Source: Candidatus Iainarchaeum sp. (GTDB lineage Archaea > Iainarchaeota > Iainarchaeia > Iainarchaeales > GCA-2688035). Taken from it: a stretch of DNA of 32,000 nucleotides. Positions 214 through 28,696 of the stretch are shown in pieces. The notes below the pieces were generated by a model, which ran no database searches, was not told the origin of the DNA, and was given only the letters and a program-made list of their open reading frames with translations. The stretch is taken from assembly GCA_028713935.1 (NCBI GenBank), contig JAQTNI010000006.1:1-32000 (forward strand), given 5' to 3'. Position numbers and translations under genes: made by a program. How positions within the stretch are numbered: the stretch's first letter is position 1; each line of letters starts with the position of its first letter.

Positions 214-251
214 ATAACATTTTTTTGGATAAAAATTTTGGACTGATTTGC

Positions 252-3236
252 ATGCAGAACTGGGAAGTTGTTGAGGCTTATTTCAAAAACAGGAATTTTG
301 CCCAAATGGAAATTGATTCCTTTAACCAGTTTGTTGACCAGAAGCTCAACGAGATTGTCGATGAAAACAAGGAAATTGTCCCAAAAATAGAAGAAGTCAG
401 GATTGAATTGTCAAACATTGAAATTTCAAAGCCGTCAATAACAGAAGCAGACGGAAGCCCAAGGTCAAGCTTTTTTCCAATGGAGGCAAGAATCAGGAAC
501 AGGACTTATTCGGGAAAAATTTCGCTTACAATGAAATTATTCAGGAGAGACGTTGAACAGGACACAAGAAAAGCATACATCGGGGATTTGCCAATAATGG
601 TGAAATCAAAATTATGCTGGCTCAACGGAAAAACAGATGAAGAGCTCGCGGAAATGGGCGAAGACCCAAAGGATTTTGGCGGATATTTTATAATCAACGG
701 AAGCGAAAAAGCCCTGATAACACAGGAAGTGCTTGCAAGCGACAGGGTTTTGATTTCAGAAATTCCAAAAGGAGTGGCTGCAGAAGTTATTTCAACAAAA
801 GGCGCTTTCAAGGGAAGAGTCAGGGTTGCAAGGCACACTGACGGAATGATTTATGTCACTTTCCCGGCTTCGCCAAGAAAATTAAAACTGTTTGTATTGC
901 TGAAAGCCCTTGGGCTTATTTCCATACGCGAAATCCAGGATGCATTTCCCGAAGAAAAAGAAATTGAAAACGATGTGCTTTTGAACTGGCAGAACACAAT
1001 TGCAAAAACAGAAGAAGAAGCGCTTGACAGGATTGGAAAATATGTTGCGCCTGGGCAGGTTGTTGATTACAGGCTCAGAAGGGCAAGAGAAGTAATTGAC
1101 GCTTTCCTGTTGCCCCACATTGGCCAGAAAAAAACAGACAGGCTTGCAAAAGCTTATTACCTTACAATGATGGCAACAAAGGCAATTGAAAGGTATTATG
1201 GATTAAGAAGCGAGGATGACAAGGACCATTATGCAAACAAGCGCCTTGAATTGAGCGGAAAATTAATGGAACACCTGTTTCGGTACAGTTTCAAATATTT
1301 TATAAAGGATTTAAGATTCCAGATTGACAGGACAATTACAAGAAGAAGAAAATTGAACATTGCAACAGTAGTAAGGCCAGGCGCAATAAGCGAAAGAATA
1401 AGGTTTGCAATGAGCACTGGCAACTGGATTGGGCGCGCAACAGGAGTAAGCAAGTTCATGGACAGGGTGAATTACTTAAGCCCGCTTACAGACCTCAGAA
1501 AAGTGAAAAGCCCCCTGAACAAAAACAGGGAATTATACGAGGCAAGGGATGTGCATGGAACCCATTGGGGAAGGCTTGACCCGATTGAAACCCCTGACGG
1601 CCCAATGTGCGTTGCGCCTGAAACAGAAATGATTCTGGATGATTATTCTGGAATAAGCATTAAGGAATTTGAAGGCATCTGGAAGCAAAGGAAAATTGTT
1701 TCTGTTGACTGGGAAAAAAACAAGGCTGAAAAAAAAGCTGATATTGTAAGGCACATTAAAATGGCTTCAAACAAAAAAGTTTTTGAATTATTTACAAAAG
1801 AGAGCAACAGGAGAATAATTGCTTCTGCAGACCATCCTTTCTTTTCGGAACAATTTGGAAAAACTGCATTGGAAAACTTAAAGAAAGGGAACCGGGTTGC
1901 TGTGTTGCCAATAAAACCAATAAAATTTGAAACCCCTGAAAATAAGATTCTGATTAGCGAAGAAAGCATTTTCAATGCCTGCCCTGAAAAAACAGACAAA
2001 CAATACGTTTTGAACGAATTAAAGAAAAAAGGCTTTGTTCCATTGCTTGATTCAAATCAAAAAGCAATTGTTTTGGCGAAATTGCTCGGCTTTATTTTTG
2101 GAGACGGCGGGTTAAGCATTTCAATGAAAAAGTACAAGTCGAACTGCACAATTACTTTTGCTGGAAGGCAAGCAGATTTGGAAGAAATTGCAGGGGACAT
2201 AAAAGAAATGGGTTTTGATTGCGGAAAGATTATCAGAACAAAAAGGGTTTCTGTGCTTTCAAATGGCAGGGTTATTTCGGGCTATTCAGAAACAATGCAT
2301 TGCTATTCAAAGCCATTGTGGATTTTATTCAGGGCGCTGGGCGCCCCTGTTGGGGACAAAGCAATTAGCCCGACAAGCGTGCCAAATTGGCTGATGAACT
2401 CAAGGAAAATTTTTGCAATGGAATTTTTAAGCGGTTATTTTGGAAGCGAAATGACAAAGCCCAGTGCGGATAAAAGAAACGGAACGGTCTTTTTGCAGCC
2501 AGTTGTTTCACTGAACAAGTCAAAGGAACTCGTGCAAAATGGATTGGAATTTGCAGAGCAATTGAAGGAATTGCTGCAAAAGTTTGGCATTAAGGCTTCC
2601 TGCATAAAAATTGTTGACGGAATAAAAAGAAAATCAGGAATTGAAACTAAAAAAATAAAATTGCTTGTTTCCAGCAGACCGGATAGTTTGCTTAATTTAT
2701 ATGGCACTGTTGGGTTTGGGTATTGCGCTGAAAGAAAAAGCCTTGCAAGAATGGCTTACAGCTATTTGCTGTTCAAAAAAACAATGGTTGAAAAGAGAAT
2801 CAAGGCGCAGCAATTTGCAATTGCATTGGCAAATAACGGAAAAAGCATTTCACAAATAGCCGGAGAAATAGGCCCTGATGTGAAAAAGCATGATGTGAGC
2901 AATTGGCTTAAAAAAGACAAAAAAGGCTTGAACAAGTTCGTGCGGGTTTCCGAAAAAGAATTTCCAAAATTCAATGACTGGATTAGGGAACACTGCATTT
3001 CGGAAAACGGCCTGGTTTGGGAAACAATTGAATCAATAAAAGAAACAGAATGCAGGGAAGTAATGGATGTAACCACAAAACAGGCTTACCATAATTTTTT
3101 TGCAAATGGCTTTTTGACAGGCAACTGCGGCTTAGTGAAAAATCTTTGCTTAATGGCGGAAGTTACAACTGATGCTGATGAAAAACCAATTGAAGAATTG
3201 CTGAACAAGAAAGGCGTAAAAATGAGGAAATTGTAG
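252..3236 (+). CDS. rpoB2: DNA-directed RNA polymerase subunit B'' (N-terminal half of a split RpoB), interrupted by an in-frame intein
   Basis: The N-terminus (WEVVEAYF...EIDSFNQFV) and the motifs GGYFIINGSEKA, DDKDHYANKRLELSG and RLDPIETPDGPM...CGLVKNL are typical of archaeal RpoB. The track ORF starts at TTG 225; the ATG at 252 gives the canonical N-terminus. Stop is TAG 3234-3236. Confidence 0.95.
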   Translation: MQNWEVVEAYFKNRNFAQMEIDSFNQFVDQKLNEIVDENKEIVPKIEEVRIELSNIEISKPSITEADGSPRSSFFPMEARIRNRTYSGKISLTMKLFRRDVEQDTRKAYIGDLPIMVKSKLCWLNGKTDEELAEMGEDPKDFGGYFIINGSEKALITQEVLASDRVLISEIPKGVAAEVISTKGAFKGRVRVARHTDGMIYVTFPASPRKLKLFVLLKALGLISIREIQDAFPEEKEIENDVLLNWQNTIAKTEEEALDRIGKYVAPGQVVDYRLRRAREVIDAFLLPHIGQKKTDRLAKAYYLTMMATKAIERYYGLRSEDDKDHYANKRLELSGKLMEHLFRYSFKYFIKDLRFQIDRTITRRRKLNIATVVRPGAISERIRFAMSTGNWIGRATGVSKFMDRVNYLSPLTDLRKVKSPLNKNRELYEARDVHGTHWGRLDPIETPDGPMCVAPETEMILDDYSGISIKEFEGIWKQRKIVSVDWEKNKAEKKADIVRHIKMASNKKVFELFTKESNRRIIASADHPFFSEQFGKTALENLKKGNRVAVLPIKPIKFETPENKILISEESIFNACPEKTDKQYVLNELKKKGFVPLLDSNQKAIVLAKLLGFIFGDGGLSISMKKYKSNCTITFAGRQADLEEIAGDIKEMGFDCGKIIRTKRVSVLSNGRVISGYSETMHCYSKPLWILFRALGAPVGDKAISPTSVPNWLMNSRKIFAMEFLSGYFGSEMTKPSADKRNGTVFLQPVVSLNKSKELVQNGLEFAEQLKELLQKFGIKASCIKIVDGIKRKSGIETKKIKLLVSSRPDSLLNLYGTVGFGYCAERKSLARMAYSYLLFKKTMVEKRIKAQQFAIALANNGKSISQIAGEIGPDVKKHDVSNWLKKDKKGLNKFVRVSEKEFPKFNDWIREHCISENGLVWETIESIKETECREVMDVTTKQAYHNFFANGFLTGNCGLVKNLCLMAEVTTDADEKPIEELLNKKGVKMRKL
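1608..3125 (+). mobile_element. Intein (506 aa) with a LAGLIDADG homing-endonuclease domain, inserted in rpoB''
   Basis: The extein junction ETPDGPM|C...GN|CGLVKNL restores the conserved RpoB motif TP(E/D)Gxx-CGLVKNL. The N-terminal residue is Cys (CVAPETEMIL), block B is like SADHPFF, and the C-terminal block is YHNFFANGFLTGN followed by a +1 Cys. The two LAGLIDADG motifs are LAKLLGFIFGDGGLS (2073-2117) and AMEFLSGYFGSEMTK (2415-2459). Confidence 0.85.
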
Positions 3237-9205: not shown

Positions 9206-9532
9206 ATGGTTGAAATCGACGCTAACAAGGAAATCAGAAGGGCTGTGGATACAGGTTCTGTGAAATTTGGCTTCAAGCAGTCCGAGAAAAACGTTTTAAA
9301 AGGCAATGCTGAGCTAATTATTTTAAGTTCTAACGTTCAAAAGCGCATAAAGGAAAAAATTCAGCATTATTGTGCTTCTGCAAAAATCCCGATTTTCAAT
9401 TTTTCAGGAAATTCAGTGGAATTGGGCAGTGTTTGCGGAAAGCCGTTTGTAATTTCTTGCCTTTGCATTGAGAAATCCGGAAAAAGCAAGGCCTTGGGCC
9501 TGGCAAAGATTCAGAGCAGTGAAAACAAATGA
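9206..9532 (+). CDS. rpl30e: Ribosomal protein L30e (eL30)
   Basis: The pattern IRRAVDTGSVKFGFKQSEKNVLKGNAELIILSSN...ELGSVCGKPFVISCLCI matches the L30e/L7Ae-fold family, and this is the canonical position after rpoA''. The alternative ATG at 9194 adds 4 residues. Confidence 0.88.
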   Translation: MVEIDANKEIRRAVDTGSVKFGFKQSEKNVLKGNAELIILSSNVQKRIKEKIQHYCASAKIPIFNFSGNSVELGSVCGKPFVISCLCIEKSGKSKALGLAKIQSSENK

Positions 9533-9942
9533 AACTTGGTGCAGATGAGATTTTTTACCTGAACGCTTTGAATTCGATTTCCGGGGCAAATGCGAGGGAC
9601 TGTGTTGTGCAGGGCAACACTGTGAGCTTCATTGTCAGGCCAGGGGAATTGGGCAGGGCAATTGGAAAAAACGCCCTGAACATAGAGCAGCTGAAAAAAA
9701 GGCTGAAAAAAAACATTGAAATTTTTGAATACTCCGAAAACGCAGGGGAATTTTTAAAAAAAGCGTTTTATAACATTGAATTCAAAAAAATTGATTCCGT
9801 TGAAGAACAGGGAAAAAAAGCCCTTGTGGTCGCGGTTGACGCGGAAAACAGGAGCAAAATGCTCAACAATTCAGGAAAAATAAAAAGAATAAAAGAAATC
9901 GCAAAAAGGAATTATGGAATAGAGGAAATAAAAATCAGGTAA
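9529..9942 (+). CDS. nusA: Archaeal NusA-like transcription factor (two KH domains)
   Basis: 137 aa. GRAIGKNALNIEQLKKRL and a second KH-like segment (NNSGKIKRIKEIAKR). Canonical position between L30e and S12. There is a 4-nt ATGA overlap with rpl30e. Confidence 0.82.
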   Translation: MKLGADEIFYLNALNSISGANARDCVVQGNTVSFIVRPGELGRAIGKNALNIEQLKKRLKKNIEIFEYSENAGEFLKKAFYNIEFKKIDSVEEQGKKALVVAVDAENRSKMLNNSGKIKRIKEIAKRNYGIEEIKIR

Positions 9943-10413: not shown

Positions 10414-10472
10414 AAAGTGTAAGTTCTTTTCTTTGGGAAACTTACACTTTCTTTTCTTCCAAGAAAAGAAAG
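10414..10472 (+). promoter_or_regulatory. Structured S12-S7 intercistronic element with two overlapping 12-bp hairpins; the A-rich arm abuts the rps7 SD
   Basis: AAAGTGTAAGTT (10414-10425) pairs with AACTTACACTTT (10439-10450). CTTTCTTTTCTT (10447-10458) pairs with AAGAAAAGAAAG (10461-10472). GGGGAG (10472-10477) lies 5 nt before the ATG at 10483. Confidence 0.6.
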
Positions 10473-10482
10473 GGGAGATTTT

Positions 10483-11162: not shown

Positions 11163-13355
11163 ATGACAAAAAGAGAAGACATGGTTGAACTGGCAGAAAA
11201 AATGATGGCTGACAGGAAAAACATAAGAAACATTGGGACAGTGGCGCACATTGACCATGGAAAAACAACTTTGTCAGATGCGCTGATTGCAGCGGCAGGA
11301 CTCATAAGCCAGGAAGTTGCAGGAACAGCGCAGATAATGGATTACGAGGACCAGGAACAGCAAAGAGGCATAACAATCAATGCCGCAAACATTTCACTTG
11401 TTTTTGATTATGAAAACGAAAAAACACTCGTCAACCTAATTGACACGCCGGGGCATGTTGATTTTACAGGCGAAGTAATAAGGGCAATGAGGGCAGTTGA
11501 CGGAGTAATTGTTGTTGTTGATGCAGTTGAAGGAATAATGCCACAAACTGAAACAGTGATAAGGCAGGCATTAAAGGAATATGTAAAGCCAGTGCTTTTC
11601 ATAAACAAAGTTGACAGGCTGATTAACGAACTGAAAGTTTCAGAAGAAGAAATGCAAAAAAGATTTTTAAAAGTCATTGCGGCAATCAACAGCCTTATCA
11701 GCAAAAATGCAGCAGGCGAATTCAAGGAAAAATGGCTAGTAAACCCAGCAAACGGAAGCGTTGCATTCGGCTCTGCAAAAAGAAAATGGGCCGTCTCAGT
11801 TCCGTATATGCAAAAATCAAAAATCAATTTCAAGCAGATTTATTCCTACCTTAAAAACGATGACCAAAAAAAGCTCGCCGAAATAAGCCCTGTTTATGAG
11901 GTTGTTTTGAAAATGGCGCGAGACCACCTGCCCAACCCCTTGGAAGCACAAAAATACAGGACCAAAAACATCTGGACAGGCGACCTTGAATCAGAAATCG
12001 GAAAATCAATGCAGGCTTGCGATGAAAAAGGCGAAATAGCAATGATGATTACAGATGTAAGCGTAAATCCCCATGTTGGCGACATTGCCACTGGCAGGAT
12101 TTACTCTGGCACACTGAAAAACGGGGTTATTGTAAAACTCTTGGGAATGCAGAAAGAAATCAGGATACAAAAAGCAGGAGTTTTTATGGGGCCGGAATTT
12201 ATTGATGTCACAAAGGCGGAAGCCGGCAATGTTGCGGCAATAGTCGGCTTGAAAGAAGTTTTTGCAGGCGAAACAATTTCCACAATTGACATGAAGCAAT
12301 TTGAAAGCTTCAAATCTTCTGTTGAACCAGTAATGACTGTCAGCGTAGAGGCAAAACAAACAAAAGACTTGCCAAAACTAATCCAGGTTTTAAGGCAGCT
12401 TTCAAAAGAAGACCCAAACCTCAGGACATCAATAAACCAGGAAACAGGAGAACACCTGCTTTCGGGAATGGGCGAGCTTCATCTTGATGTCAACAGGTAC
12501 AGGATAGAAGAAACGCACAAAATTCCAATTGCAATGGGAGCGCCGATTGTTGTTTACAAAGAAGCAATTACAAAGCCATCGCAAACACTTGAAGGAATTT
12601 CCCCGAACAGGCACAACAAATTCAAAATGAGAGTGGAACCAGTTCCTGAAGAAATTTTGCTGAAGCTTGTTGAAGCAAAAATAGAGGCAAAAATAAGGCT
12701 AAAAGACAAGGAAATAATGTCAAGGCTGGAAGAATGCGGATTTGAAAAAGAAATGTCAAAAAAAACATGGTGCGTGCACAACAACAATTTGCTTGTAGAT
12801 TCAACAAGGGGAATTGTGGCGCTGCATGAAATAAAAGAGCTTGTAATACAGGGCTTTGAAGACGCAATGGACGAAGGCCCTATTGCAAAAGAAAAATGCT
12901 TCGGGGTAATGGTAATACTTGAAGACGCAACTTTGCATGAGGACAGCATTCACCGCGGCCCTGCACAAGTACTGCCTGCAATTACAAGAACAATTTTTGC
13001 AGGAATGCTTTCAACAGACCACATACTGCTTGAACCAAAACAATTATTGTCAATCACAGTGCCAAGCGATTACATGGGCGCAGTAACAAAAGAACTTGGG
13101 TCAAAAAGGACACAAATTTCAGAAATTCGGACAGAAGGCGACACAACAGTAATTGTTGCAAAAGCCCCTGTAAAAGAACTGATCGGCTTCAGCGCAGACA
13201 TGCGCGGAGCAACCCAGGGAAGAGCAGTCTGGACAGCGGAATACGCAGGCTATGAAGTCCTGCCAAGAGAACTGCAAAAAGGCATAATCACAGAAGTAAG
13301 AAAAAGAAAAGGCCTGGAACCAGAGCCAAAAGCATGGCAATTCTTCCTGGAGTAA
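11163..13355 (+). CDS. fusA: Translation elongation factor 2 (aEF-2)
   Basis: G1 motif AHIDHGKTTL, DTPGHVDF, NKVDR, and the diphthamide-site motif HEDSIHRG. The track ORF begins at TTG 11115; the ATG at 11163 (MTKRED...) gives the canonical N-terminus. Confidence 0.97.
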   Translation: MTKREDMVELAEKMMADRKNIRNIGTVAHIDHGKTTLSDALIAAAGLISQEVAGTAQIMDYEDQEQQRGITINAANISLVFDYENEKTLVNLIDTPGHVDFTGEVIRAMRAVDGVIVVVDAVEGIMPQTETVIRQALKEYVKPVLFINKVDRLINELKVSEEEMQKRFLKVIAAINSLISKNAAGEFKEKWLVNPANGSVAFGSAKRKWAVSVPYMQKSKINFKQIYSYLKNDDQKKLAEISPVYEVVLKMARDHLPNPLEAQKYRTKNIWTGDLESEIGKSMQACDEKGEIAMMITDVSVNPHVGDIATGRIYSGTLKNGVIVKLLGMQKEIRIQKAGVFMGPEFIDVTKAEAGNVAAIVGLKEVFAGETISTIDMKQFESFKSSVEPVMTVSVEAKQTKDLPKLIQVLRQLSKEDPNLRTSINQETGEHLLSGMGELHLDVNRYRIEETHKIPIAMGAPIVVYKEAITKPSQTLEGISPNRHNKFKMRVEPVPEEILLKLVEAKIEAKIRLKDKEIMSRLEECGFEKEMSKKTWCVHNNNLLVDSTRGIVALHEIKELVIQGFEDAMDEGPIAKEKCFGVMVILEDATLHEDSIHRGPAQVLPAITRTIFAGMLSTDHILLEPKQLLSITVPSDYMGAVTKELGSKRTQISEIRTEGDTTVIVAKAPVKELIGFSADMRGATQGRAVWTAEYAGYEVLPRELQKGIITEVRKRKGLEPEPKAWQFFLE

Positions 13356-13356
13356 A

Positions 13357-13429
13357 GCTTTTCTTTGCAGAGCAAAGAAAACCTTGGAAAAGAAACAATT
13401 TGCCTCTGGCAAATTGTGGTTCGCTTCGC
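13357..13429 (+). repeat. Post-fusA copy of the composite intergenic repeat: a hairpin, a TTGGAAAAGA box, a second hairpin, then TTCGCTTCGC
   Basis: The 10-bp stem TTTTCTTTGC (13359-13368) / GCAAAGAAAA (13372-13381) starts 4 nt after the stop codon. There is a 9-bp stem CAATTTGCC (13396-13404) / GGCAAATTG (13408-13416). TTCGCTTCGC (13420-13429) is shared with 26429-26438. Confidence 0.6.
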
Positions 13430-13612
13430 TCACAAAAAAATTAAGCGGCACAAAAAATTTTGGAATATTTTGCAGCCGAAATGCTTTATTTTTGGCTTTA
13501 AGGCATCGGTTTTTAAAGATTTTGAAAGCCAAACTATTAATCAAAAATATAAACGTGTTTCCAATTTTTCCTCTAAAAAATTGGTGGCGAATTTTTTATT
13601 GGAGGTAATTTC

Positions 13613-14907: not shown

Positions 14908-14940
14908 GGAAGTAAAGTTTTTTTTACTTCCTTTTCCCTT
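14908..14940 (+). terminator. Hairpin plus T-tract after tuf
   Basis: GGAAGTAAA (14908-14916) pairs with TTTACTTCC (14923-14931), 9 bp, followed by CTTTTCCCTTAATTTTT. Confidence 0.5.
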
Positions 14941-14981
14941 AATTTTTAAAAAATTTTTTCAGAAAAAAAAGGTGTATGGGA

Positions 14982-26190: not shown

Positions 26191-26334
26191 ATGAAAAAAA
26201 CAAGAACTGCAAAAGCAAGAAAAGCAGCTGTAAAAGCAAGAAGCACAAAAGCAAAAACACAGCCTGCTTTCTACAAAGCACCATTGAACTTTGTTTCAAG
26301 CGGGTTCAACAGCTTTGTAAGCTATTTCAAGTAA
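26191..26334 (+). CDS. Small basic protein (47 aa), hypothetical
   Basis: A strong SD, GAGGTG (26180-26185), lies 5 nt before the ATG, and the gene starts 22 nt after the P3 stop. The sequence is MKKTRTAKARKAAVKARSTKAKTQPAFYKAPLNFVSSGFNSFVSYFK. Confidence 0.45.
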   Translation: MKKTRTAKARKAAVKARSTKAKTQPAFYKAPLNFVSSGFNSFVSYFK

Positions 26335-26337
26335 AAA

Positions 26338-26450
26338 GCCTTTTCTCTAAAGAGAAAAGCCTTGTTGCAAACCAAAAGGTTTGCGACGCGTCGCAAAGCA
26401 AAGCTTTGCAACGTGGGAAAAGAGGTTTTTCGCTTCGCGAAAAAAGGTTT
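26338..26450 (+). repeat. Composite structured intergenic repeat, copy A (five short hairpins plus a TGGGAAAAGA box)
   Basis: Stems are CTTTTCTCT/AGAGAAAAG (26340-26359), GCAAACC/GGTTTGC (26367-26384), the palindrome GCGACGCGTCGC (26383-26394), GCAAAGC/GCTTTGC (26393-26409) and TTTTTCGC/GCGAAAAA (26426-26444). The box is at 26414-26423. Confidence 0.65.
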
Positions 26451-26485
26451 CAAATAATTAACCAAAATTTTACTTTTTAATTAAA

Positions 26486-26515
26486 GGGGGCTTTGCCCCC
26501 AAATTTGATTTTTTG
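26486..26515. terminator. GC hairpin GGGGGC-TTT-GCCCCC flanked by T-runs on both strands; a candidate bidirectional terminator between convergent genes
   Basis: A perfect 6-bp GC stem (26486-26500) followed by AAATTTGATTTTTTG. It lies between the + strand small ORF and the - strand SET gene. Confidence 0.5.
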
Positions 26516-26548
26516 TTCAAACAAGGCAAAGACTGCCAGAAATTCTAC

Positions 26549-27073
26549 CTATAACTTCTTGTTGTTTTGCTTTCGAATTTTTTCTTTAAGGTATGGTGAA
26601 AAATACTCAAAATACCTGTCTTGCAGTTGTTTTAATTTCCAATCATCCATTGTAATTTTTCCACGGCAATTTTTACTCCCGCAGGCGCATTTGAAATTAA
26701 ATCTTGCAGAATTCAGGAAGGCATAATCCAAAGTAAGTTCTTCTCCCTTTTCAATATCCCTAATTGCGATTGTTGTTAGGGCATCCATAAAACCGCAATT
26801 GGGCTCGCATGAGTGATTGAGTGCCCCCAATTTTTTTGACTCCTCTGCTGTCGGAGGGCAAATGAAAAAGCCTTCATTTACTTGAATGCCAAGATGGCTG
26901 ACAGTTTTGTCATATTCTTTAATCTCATTTTTTGGAATAATAAGCCCACCAAATACACAAATTATTTTTCCCTTGTGTATTCTCTCCGATGCGCTCAAAC
27001 CATATCCTGCTATCGTTGATTTGAAGGGTTTTGCTTTTGGCGTAATCCATCGGGCATTCCACTTTTTTTGCAT
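26549..27073 (-). CDS. SET-domain protein-lysine methyltransferase
   Basis: GYGLSA..., NHSCEPNC, ELTLDYAF and the post-SET motif CACGSKNCRG. The ATG at 27073 (MQKKWNARW...) has TTTAAAATA centred about 26 nt upstream on the minus strand. The longer track ORF (to 27160) would encode the promoter region. Confidence 0.85.
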   Translation of the reverse strand: MQKKWNARWITPKAKPFKSTIAGYGLSASERIHKGKIICVFGGLIIPKNEIKEYDKTVSHLGIQVNEGFFICPPTAEESKKLGALNHSCEPNCGFMDALTTIAIRDIEKGEELTLDYAFLNSARFNFKCACGSKNCRGKITMDDWKLKQLQDRYFEYFSPYLKEKIRKQNNKKL

Positions 27074-27321
27074 ATATGCTCTTTTGCACAAAAATATTTT
27101 AAATAGGGCTCTGACAAGAATTGCGTGCAAAGTCAAGTTTGTGTTCAACTTTATGGGCAAAGCTTACACCAGGCAAGCCTTTAAAAACCTTTTTTTAAAG
27201 AATATTATAATTATAAATTGGTTTTGTCAATTAACTGAATAATTCAAAGTTTGGCAAACTGCATCGCAAGCGAGCCGCCTGTGATGTAACTGCTGAAATC
27301 AAATTCCTGATTTTAGCGTTA

Positions 27322-27431
27322 GGCCTTTTCTTAAACATTGTAAAACCGAAAGGTTTTACGATGCCTCGCAAAGCAGTGCTTTGCAAGGAAGAAAAGCCCT
27401 GGGAAAAGAAGTTTTTTGCTTCGCAAAAAAC
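27322..27431 (+). repeat. Composite structured intergenic repeat, copy B, upstream of rpl3
   Basis: The outer stem GGCCTTTTCTT (27322-27332) / AAGAAAAGCCC (27389-27399) encloses GTAAAACC-GAAA-GGTTTTAC (27340-27359) and GCAAAGC-AGT-GCTTTGC (27368-27384). These are followed by TGGGAAAAGA (27400-27409) and the stem GTTTTTTGC/GCAAAAAAC (27411-27431). Confidence 0.65.
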
Positions 27432-28661: not shown

Positions 28662-28696
28662 GGCCTTTTCTTGAAAAGAAAAGCCCTGGGAAAAAA
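28662..28696 (+). repeat. Short form of the repeat in the L3-L4 spacer: GGCCTTTTCTT-GAA-AAGAAAAGCCC followed by TGGGAAAAAA
   Basis: An 8-bp perfect stem (28665-28672 / 28676-28683) plus flanking G:C pairs. The 12 nt at 28661-28672 and the 19 nt at 28676-28694 are identical to 27321-27332 and 27389-27407. Confidence 0.65.

Follow-up and report, generated by a model that had tools for sequence, protein, structure and literature searches.

Mosaic families of hairpin modules that vary in number and order are represented by the BOX elements of pneumococci and the Correia elements of Neisseria, which lie inside transcription units and can alter the stability or processing of mRNA. The very small genomes of DPANN archaea are usually thought to be poor in repetitive DNA. 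Repetitive extragenic palindromic (REP) sequences and bacterial interspersed mosaic elements (BIMEs) are referred to here as previously defined (PMC2817692). In the archaeal Thermoproteales, near-identical sequences in the introns of different tRNA genes point to recent intron gain (Fujishima et al. 2010, summarised in PMC4090602), and these transposed introns have bulge-helix-bulge (BHB) splice sites and are thought to have moved at the DNA level (PMC4090602). The gain and movement of protein-spliced archaeal tRNA introns is an open question, and the case for their transposition is so far an inference from resemblances between the introns of different tRNA genes. Here, we describe four hairpin modules in a 32-kb stretch of Candidatus Iainarchaeum DNA (positions 1 to 32,000 of contig JAQTNI010000006.1, the window) together with their relatives in sister genomes. 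The four modules, copies A, B and C and a mini copy, probably belong to a lineage-specific family of non-coding mosaic palindromic repeats of this DPANN archaeon that is mobile at the DNA level. In close strains, one family both forms the body of tRNA introns of the canonical kind and stands free as a repeat of operon spacers, with filled and empty sites at about 99% identity. These filled and empty sites and the two settings provide a concrete system for studying the direction and mechanism of intron movement.

Hairpin modules in the window

All four copies are on the plus strand. The original prediction, made from the letters of the window, had described A and B as co-oriented homologous modules. 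A repeat finder (52 nt at 75% identity in the same orientation, 26369-26420 against 27344-27395) and blastn-short (31 nt at 90%, E 1e-5, and another 21 nt at 90%) bore this out, and the limits were refined to 26335-26447 for copy A and 27321-27431 for copy B. An independent Logan contig (L001) confirmed copy B. The third copy, named earlier at 13357-13440, proved to be real and of a different subtype, with refined limits at 13354-13433 and a tail possibly extending to about 13470 (copy C). A fourth, minimal copy at 28662-28696 had gone unnoticed and lies in the L3-L4 spacer, directly 5′ of the L4 ATG.

The backbone of the family consists of a U-rich/A-rich hairpin (hp1), a single-stranded box conserved in sequence (CC-YUGGGAAAAGA) and a second U/A hairpin (hp4), the latter being degenerate in the C-type. 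In copies A and B, an imperfect palindrome of 21-24 nt (C-TTG-Y-AAA...TTT-R-CGA) is additionally present as an inverted doublet, which is located after hp1 in A and within the hp1 loop in B. Copy A is composed of hp1 (26338-26361), a forward REP-like unit (hpX, 26364-26387), a reverse REP-like unit (hp2, 26389-26413), the box TGGGAAAAGAGG (26414-26425) and hp4 (26426-26444). In copy B, an outer 5′ arm (27322-27332) and an outer 3′ arm (27389-27398) enclose the forward unit (27336-27363) and the reverse unit (27364-27388), followed by the box CTGGGAAAAGAAG (27399-27411) and hp4 (27411-27431). The folds agreed with the earlier description of the CTTTTCT/AGAAAAG stem as local in A and as an outer stem around two hairpins in B, and B looks permuted because the doublet sits within its hp1 loop. 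Copy C contains hp1 (13358-13381), the box CCTTGGAAAAGAA (13382-13394), a different hairpin (13395-13417) and the conserved sequence GGTTCGCTTCGCTCAC (13418-13433). The mini copy has an hp1 (GGCCTTTTCTT-GAA-AAGAAAAGCC) and the box CTGGGAAAAAA without hp4; it matches B exactly over 19 nt (blastn-short), and the chance expectation of its hp1 pattern is 0.

Copies A and B folded with free energies of -49.0 kcal/mol (z -5.0) and -46.2 kcal/mol (z -6.0), respectively, and in neither case did any of 200 shuffles fold as well. Since the reverse strands folded equally well (z -5.2 for A and -7.4 for B), as palindromes are expected to do, the folding strand is not identified by folding alone. The stem with a diverged loop that had been reported (GCAAAGC-AAA-GCTTTGC against GCAAAGC-AGT-GCTTTGC), the two compensated stem changes (GCAAACC/GGTTTGC against GTAAAACC/GGTTTTAC and TTTTTCGC/GCGAAAAA against TTTTTTGC/GCAAAAAA) and the sequence TGGGAAAAGA common to A and B are all present. 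In the aligned hp1 all 69 of 69 cells are paired and 5 of the 11 pairs have changed on both sides, a covariation score and paired fraction reached by none of 500 shuffles. Pairing is likewise complete in hp4 (56 of 56 cells, one pair changed on both sides) and in hp2 (50 of 50 cells, two pairs changed on both sides and an invariant C.A mismatch). All cells of hpX are paired, with an invariant U.G wobble, and the second hairpin of the C-type is paired throughout, except for the outermost pair in L024c, and has three pairs changed on both sides.

The alignment of hpX to the reverse complement of hp2 was better than that to hp2 itself (mean score 6.0 vs 1.9), and judged by their sequences the two are one 21-24-nt imperfect palindrome in opposite orientations. 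The unit pattern (TTGYAAA...TTTRCGA) was found only as forward/reverse pairs inside modules (A, B and L007b in DeMMO3_25), with 0 expected in shuffles, and a reading of the large module of STB_123 (L008a) gave two forward units followed by two reverse units. The unit stems are fully paired apart from a single conserved U.G or C.A position. A choice of strand by G.U versus A.C counts was tried and proved uninformative, as the U.G is conserved in hpX and the C.A in hp2, which is expected if they are inverted copies of one unit. In the box YTGGGAAAAGA, 9 of 10 positions are identical in all seven aligned copies, and the box is unpaired in the fold of B.

Distribution of the family

The core pattern GGGAAAARA-NN-TTTT-NN-GC-NNN-GC-NN-AAAA was scanned against one genome per species of 185,579 species and gave 12 matches. 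Five of these were in three Iainarchaeum metagenome-assembled genomes (MAGs), DeMMO3_25, STB_123 and Zod_Metabat.1228; the other seven, in unrelated bacterial MAGs, were not inspected and are taken for chance. A metagenome collection yielded five matches to the core pattern, all of them chance, and two scans of viral contigs returned no match or only 20-nt chance matches without the hairpin. An Rfam search gave no match at the gathering threshold in the whole window, the best sub-threshold match of a permissive search reaching 25.5 bits against a threshold of 56, and nothing was found in L017 and L007 either. Neither repeats of this kind in Iainarchaeota nor intergenic repeats common to archaeal tRNA introns were described in the literature searched.

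Contigs with genes for L3 and EF-1alpha homologues supplied further loci (contigs are numbered with the prefix L). The sample came to about 160 kb from five assemblies: that of the window, DeMMO3_25, STB_123, Zod_Metabat.1228 and the Ga0209541 bin. On both of its strands, BLAST and two covariance models (R1 and R2) detected about 15 copies of three architectures, four of them in the window, a count for this sample and not a per-genome figure. The R1 score of the mini copy (52.5 bits) is high by construction, this copy being one of the seven training sequences of R1, and copy A (49 bits with R1 and 56 bits with R2) had partly trained both models. Both the Rfam search and the covariance-model scan of relatives had been proposed in the original prediction. 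With the pattern scan, BLAST and the models taken together, further copies are known from the window and from no fewer than four other assemblies of Iainarchaeum. The modules are a lineage-specific multi-copy family, confined to Iainarchaeum in the collections searched.

The A-type (hp1, box, hp4) is found in minimal form in L018 and with the inverted hairpin doublet after hp1 in copy A. The B-type, with the doublet inside the hp1 loop, includes copy B, L007b, the orthologue in L003, L008a and L017. The C-type (hp1, box, the different hairpin and the conserved GGTTCGCTTCGCTCAC) is represented by copy C, an intron in L007, L024 and L041/L042. Copy B is 91% identical over 110 nt (E 1.5e-35) to L007b (L007 1146-1255), at an unrelated locus of DeMMO3_25, and 93% identical to the orthologous fragment in L003, whereas hp1 of copy A is 100% identical over 29 nt to L018 of a third MAG. 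As each is closer to a copy in another genome, A and B are not a local duplication. The 43-kb DeMMO3_25 contig (L003/L014) starts at its position 1 inside the orthologue of B, which suggests that the repeats break metagenome assemblies.

At about 11 independent sites, every full-length copy shares the strand of the genes or tRNA beside it; the copies lie just after stop codons, in leaders, in operon spacers and in tRNA introns. A weak match to hp1 and the box (23.7 bits) at L041 16105-16153 on the minus strand, inside the 3′ end of a minus-strand methyltransferase-like open reading frame (ORF) and sense to it, is the sole hint that orientation tracks transcription instead of the chromosome strand. 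U-rich/A-rich hairpins resembling a solo hp1 (CTTTCTTTT...AAAAGAAAG) occur in other spacers, at about 60-110, 10415-10475 and 14915-14945 of the window, at 11340-11380 of L024 and at 11380-11500 of L041, and AAGTGTAAGTT is common to ~93-104 and 10415-10426 of the window. These hairpins gave weak covariance-model matches and may be decayed relatives of the family.

Gain and loss of copies at orthologous sites

In the orthologous region of STB_123 (L008; L3 77% identical), the end of a 504-aa ORF and a small ORF are followed by a terminator hairpin (GGGGGC..GCCCCC) with no copy A, and then, with no SET-domain gene, by the L3 promoter, a large module (L008a) of at least four inner hairpins, the conserved L3 leader, a mini hp1 with box, and L3. 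The module is thus found before the leader in STB_123 and after the leader in the window (copy B). In Zod_Metabat.1228 (L006; L3 64% identical) the promoter and leader are present and the module and SET gene absent. The EF-2/EF-1alpha spacers of L024, L026 and L027 lack copy C, whose orthologue is present in the DeMMO strains L041 and L042 with compensated changes in hp1. L024 harbours a C-type copy in its S7-EF-2 spacer. At the site of window copy C, L024 (92% EF-1alpha identity) has two small ORFs of 87 and 114 aa (9226-9834) without Pfam match.

In L041 and L042 the EF-1alpha proteins are identical and the S7 genes 99.3% identical. Here, L042 has an insertion of ~100 nt in the S12-S7 spacer, composed of a REP-like doublet and a U/A hairpin, and the S7-EF-2 spacers of the two strains are entirely different. 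The spacers that contain elements turn over far faster than the surrounding genes, and it takes very little time for an orthologous site to gain or lose a copy. In the more distant relative L031 (about 100-240), three related copies of another palindromic repeat family (AAACTTTTGAAA...TTTCAAAAGTTT) sit between the L3 promoter and leader, the position of the module in STB_123, and hairpin repeats thus seem to have a hot spot at this site.

The rapid turnover bears on the alternative that the module is a functional cis-acting RNA (for instance one that binds a protein, stabilises the mRNA, directs its processing or acts by attenuation) that has been recruited repeatedly to operons of the translation apparatus and kept by selection. 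The compensated stems with variable loops, the nearly invariant box YTGGGAAAAGA and the sense orientation of all copies, in the transcribed spacers of genes for ribosomal proteins, elongation factors and tRNAs, would fit such a role, and in most copies the number of A in the box tracks the number of U in the 5′ arm of hp1, so that an alternative pairing is possible. However, orthologous sites may be filled in one strain and empty in another even at 99.3% S7 identity, and copies occupy different positions within the same leader in sister genomes and vary in architecture from zero to at least four inner hairpins, the mini copy lacking hp4. The terminator that follows copy A also works in STB_123, where A is missing, and a role in tRNA introns is hard to square with roles in 3′ untranslated regions (UTRs) and 5′ leaders. 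As intrinsic terminators the modules are out of place: B lies in a 5′ leader, the mini copy inside the L3-L4 operon and A upstream of a separate terminator. A selected cis-acting module as the primary explanation is therefore doubtful.

Copy A is abutted by a 10-nt direct repeat on either side, TTTCAAGTAA at 26325-26334, which includes the last codons and stop of a 47-aa ORF, and TTTCAAATAA at 26448-26457 at its 3′ end, both read on the plus strand. Nine of ten positions match, with p about 0.03 in the looser shuffle test. The ends of the A-type, AAAGCCTTTTCT... and ...GAAAAAAGG, are imperfectly inverted and are paired in the minimum-free-energy fold of A, while those of the B- and C-types are not clearly inverted. 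At L018, about 22 nt of the start region of aEF-1beta are duplicated on the two sides of the element (p about 0). No flanking duplication was seen at B, C, L007b, L008a, L024c or the two tRNA introns, nor, by reading of the alignment, at the L042 insertion compared with the empty L041 site. Target-site duplication as a general feature of the family was consequently rejected, the lengths being inconsistent (about 22 nt at L018, 10 nt at A) and duplications missing from B- and C-type copies. A structured RNA or a family resembling miniature inverted-repeat transposable elements (MITEs) had been suggested originally; the repeat family with stems kept by compensation stands, and the fixed-length target duplication of MITEs is absent. 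A DDE-type MITE mechanism with a fixed duplication is unsupported because the duplications vary or are absent.

Copies within tRNA introns

Two copies in sister genomes were located in tRNA genes, a link not visible from the window alone. In L017 of STB_123 a full B-type module lies within a tRNA-Pro(GGG) gene as a 136-nt intron at position 37/38 (ARAGORN, long introns allowed), and splicing in silico gave a normal cloverleaf. In L007 of DeMMO3_25 ARAGORN identified a tRNA-Leu(CAA) gene with a 100-nt intron, 500 nt from the B-type copy L007b; the intron is 86% identical to window copy C over 80 nt (E 1.9e-13). The elements make up most of both long introns, and both tRNA genes of the sampled loci carry an element. 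A default tRNA search of the window and the loci found no tRNA, the two genes being detected only when long introns were allowed. The repeats thus hide tRNA genes from default finders, as ARAGORN without the intron option missed both. A homologue search for orthologous tRNA sites with the ORF beside tRNA-Pro found only that ORF itself.

A BHB scan identified full h-B-H-B-h′ motifs at the exact boundaries of both introns, at the canonical position 37/38. The motif of tRNA-Pro is ctaccTTGG[GG|A]aagc...gtttCCAA[TT|T]ggtag, with an h of 5 bp, H UUGG/CCAA and an h′ of 4 bp; that of tRNA-Leu is acgagaCTCA[AG|A]ag...ttTGGG[TT|A]tctcgt, with an h of 6 bp and H CUCA/UGGG. Both introns begin with (A)AAGCC, which is the 5′ end of the element in spacers. 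The last 22 nt or so of each intron are a tail specific to its tRNA, and this tail pairs with the anticodon loop. The same scan at A, B, C, the mini copy, L007b, L018 and L024c returned only weak low-complexity candidates, none of which brackets the element convincingly. By this test the window copies are probably not introns and would be transcribed passengers.

These findings raise the alternative that the family consists of intron-derived mobile RNA elements, which originated in BHB tRNA introns and spread via RNA, by reverse splicing with the endonuclease and RtcB or via cDNA, so that the copies in UTRs and spacers are active or dead mRNA introns. The 5′ end of the element as fixed by the flanking repeats at A and L018 (AAAGCC...) is the first base of the intron in tRNA-Pro (G37|AAAGCC) and in tRNA-Leu (CAAG|AAGCC). 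The sense orientation of all copies, an element in both tRNA genes sampled, RtcB and archease encoded in the window, and the precedent of tRNA intron transposition inferred in Thermoproteales (PMC4090602) agree with this alternative. The intergenic copies, on the other hand, have no convincing BHB motif around them and lack the roughly 22-nt tRNA-specific 3′ tails; a full 5′ end with a shortened 3′ end is the opposite of what target-primed reverse transcription predicts. The duplications of 22 nt and 10 nt at the flanks speak for events at the DNA level and no reverse transcriptase was seen, which makes an RNA-level spread of this kind unlikely. It is similarly improbable that the elements are a mobile form of BHB introns that passes back and forth between the anticodon loops of tRNAs, from which it is spliced, and mRNA regions that are not translated. 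In that event the 5′ terminus would be set by the splicing cut, the endonuclease and RtcB would be involved, and the copies of the window would be recently 'landed' introns. If true, this would be the first account of how a protein-spliced intron spreads, with colonisation of mRNA in a DPANN archaeon.

Mode of spread

A mosaic palindromic repeat that moves as DNA is the reading that we favour. Such elements would move or be exchanged by a strand-specific process, usually without target duplication, and the process would resemble a single-strand transposition of the REP/BIME or IS200 type, or recombination. Copies would survive where they are harmless, that is after stop codons and in leaders, operon spacers and tRNA introns, and from the latter the splicing endonuclease and the RtcB/archease ligase would remove the element. 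The ligation half of the splicing pathway is present, since RtcB and archease are both encoded in the window. Any effect on mRNA stability or translation would be secondary, although the box and the hairpins may have been co-opted as RNA signals.

Several observations weigh against this interpretation. Pfam scans of the ORFs of the window and its neighbours revealed no transposase or other mobilising gene in the ~160 kb examined, and the number of copies was likewise obtained from that sample only. The flanking direct repeats are inconsistent, with about 22 nt at L018, 10 nt at A and none at B- and C-type copies. The strict sense orientation fits an RNA-level function or RNA-mediated spread equally well, and nearly all of the sampled genes are on one strand, so that orientation by transcription and by chromosome strand are inseparable. 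Further, the 5′ end of the element is the 5′ splice site in two different tRNAs, which is unexpected under random insertion into older introns, and the sequence conservation of the box suggests recognition by some factor.

The SET gene and the region upstream of L3

The SET-domain gene (26549-27073 on the minus strand; 174 aa from ATG; Pfam SET, E 3.8e-15) is the sole exception among the substantial genes of the window, all others being on the plus strand. The original prediction had noted that the modules flank the only minus-strand gene, and had raised the possibility that this gene was inserted or inverted by recombination between A and B. SET is indeed the sole real minus-strand gene and lies between A and B, but the modules do not abut it. 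Between A and SET is a terminator hairpin (GGGGGCTTTGCCCCC and a T-run, 26486-26500), which is terminator-like on both strands, is not a member of the family and is kept in STB_123, which has neither A nor SET. Between SET and B are the L3 operon promoter (GCCTTTAAAAACC...TATAAT...ATTGGTTTTGTC, 27177-27228 on the plus strand), conserved in L006, L008, L029 and L031, and a two-hairpin L3 leader (27253-27317, plus strand), with B immediately 3′ of the leader. The boundaries of SET are accordingly unmarked by A or B, as the ancestral terminator follows A, and the ancestral promoter and leader precede B.

That A and B were left by the insertion or inversion of SET, or used for it, as ends of a composite element or as recombination substrates, is extremely unlikely. 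The position of SET as the sole minus-strand gene between A and B and its absence from the locus in STB_123 and Zod_Metabat.1228 would suit such an event. Yet the ancestral terminator, L3 promoter and L3 leader separate the modules from SET and keep the order that they have in the SET-less relatives, A and B belong to different subfamilies, each with a closer relative in another genome, and recombination between direct repeats deletes the intervening DNA and cannot invert it. The comparison of synteny with SET-less relatives, proposed originally, also spoke against it, since STB_123 has modules at the L3 leader without SET. An unrelated minus-strand ORF is located in the same gap in L029 and L030, and that of L029 shows no similarity to SET. 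Taken with the absence of SET from the orthologous locus in STB_123 (L008) and Zod_Metabat.1228 (L006), this indicates that the gap between terminator and promoter accepts foreign genes. SET entered this gap independently of the modules.

The L3 promoter (GCCTTTAAAAACC...TATAAT...ATTGGTTT) and the leader of ~65 nt (GGCAAACUGCAU-stem-GAUGUAAnUGCUrAAAUC...CUGAUUUUAGC) are conserved down to 59% L3 identity, and are located at 27177-27317 of the window, 505-803 of L008, about 6620-6778 of L006, about 6500-6653 of L029 and about 30-315 of L031. RNAalifold on five genomes predicted 22 pairs in the leader, of which 4 show compensatory change, and no Rfam match was found for it. The leader is a candidate ribosomal-protein operon leader. 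A C/D-box sRNA had been considered for the GATG...CTGA stretch upstream of B and was rejected, the box spacing being wrong and the stretch being the conserved L3 leader.

Gene context of the window

The plus-strand genes are, in order, rpoB′ (with an intein), B″, A′, A″, L30e, NusA, S12, S7, EF-2, EF-1alpha and S10, followed by several unknown ORFs, a KaiC-like ATPase, archease, RtcB, three further unknown ORFs and the 47-aa ORF, and finally the operon L3-L4-L23-L2-S19-L22. No tRNA gene was found in the window by the default tRNA search. Inteins with LAGLIDADG domains interrupt different essential genes in each strain: rpoB′ in the window (225-3236), EF-2 in the DeMMO strains (L041 5902-9738) and a Rad50-like ATPase in Zod (L018 2560-6198). 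The lysine-rich 47-aa ORF (MKKTRTAKARKAAVKA...FYKAPLNF...; window 26191-26334 and L008 213-356) is located 3′ of the 504-aa ORF in both genomes and has no Pfam match. The 5′ leader of EF-1alpha (GTTTCCAATTTTTCC..TAAAA.AATTGGTGGCGAATTTT) and its promoter (GATTTTTAAAG.TTTTGAAAGC), at 13560-13612 of the window, are conserved in all relatives examined (L024, L026, L027 and L041). The 10-mer GTTTCCAATT of this region also ends the tRNA-Pro intron of L017, which is probably a coincidence.

Comparison with known repeat families and mobile introns

The Iainarchaeum elements share with MITEs, including archaeal ones, a small size, a non-coding and structured nature, an intergenic location and presence/absence polymorphism. 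The A-type may also resemble MITEs in its imperfectly inverted ends (AAAGCCTTTT... / ...AAAAAAGG) that abut direct repeats. Unlike MITEs, the family has direct repeats of variable length (10 vs about 22 nt), none at B- and C-type copies, and a modular composition. We know of no parent insertion sequence for these elements. To our knowledge, neither BOX nor Correia elements have been reported inside tRNA introns, and their hosts and sequences differ from those of the Iainarchaeum family.

The likeness to REP sequences, BIMEs and REPINs (PMC2817692), which are mobilised by RAYT, a Y1 transposase of the IS200/IS605 type, is considerable. In both, short imperfect palindromes carry an asymmetry that sets their orientation and are arranged as inverted doublets and in mosaic clusters; REP units measure 20-40 nt and reach tens to hundreds of copies per genome, and the Iainarchaeum units are 21-24 nt long and in spacers and leaders only. 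Both are extragenic, often located right after stop codons inside operons and co-transcribed, and both are rapidly gained and lost between strains, usually without target duplication. The Iainarchaeum family differs in its archaeal host and in units that start with C(C/A)TTG and have no GTAG or CGTC head. Its doublets are embedded in two U/A hairpins with a conserved single-stranded box and are all sense to transcription, and elements also occur in tRNA introns, for which there is no bacterial counterpart. A scan of ORFs of the window and the loci revealed no Y1 transposase domain (RAYT/TnpA).

With the transposed introns of Thermoproteales the family has in common near-identical sequences in different tRNA genes and BHB splice sites. 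The related sequences of Thermoproteales are mentioned only in tRNA genes, at both canonical and non-canonical sites (PMC4090602), whereas the Iainarchaeum family is found at the canonical position 37/38 and, without BHB, in the spacers and leaders of protein genes, in a DPANN host. The family resembles both REP/BIME/REPIN sequences and transposed Thermoproteales introns, but lacks defining features of each, namely the GTAG or CGTC head of the former and, at the window copies, the BHB motif of the latter. As far as literature searches show, it would be a REP/BIME-like mosaic palindromic family in a DPANN host whose genome is very small.

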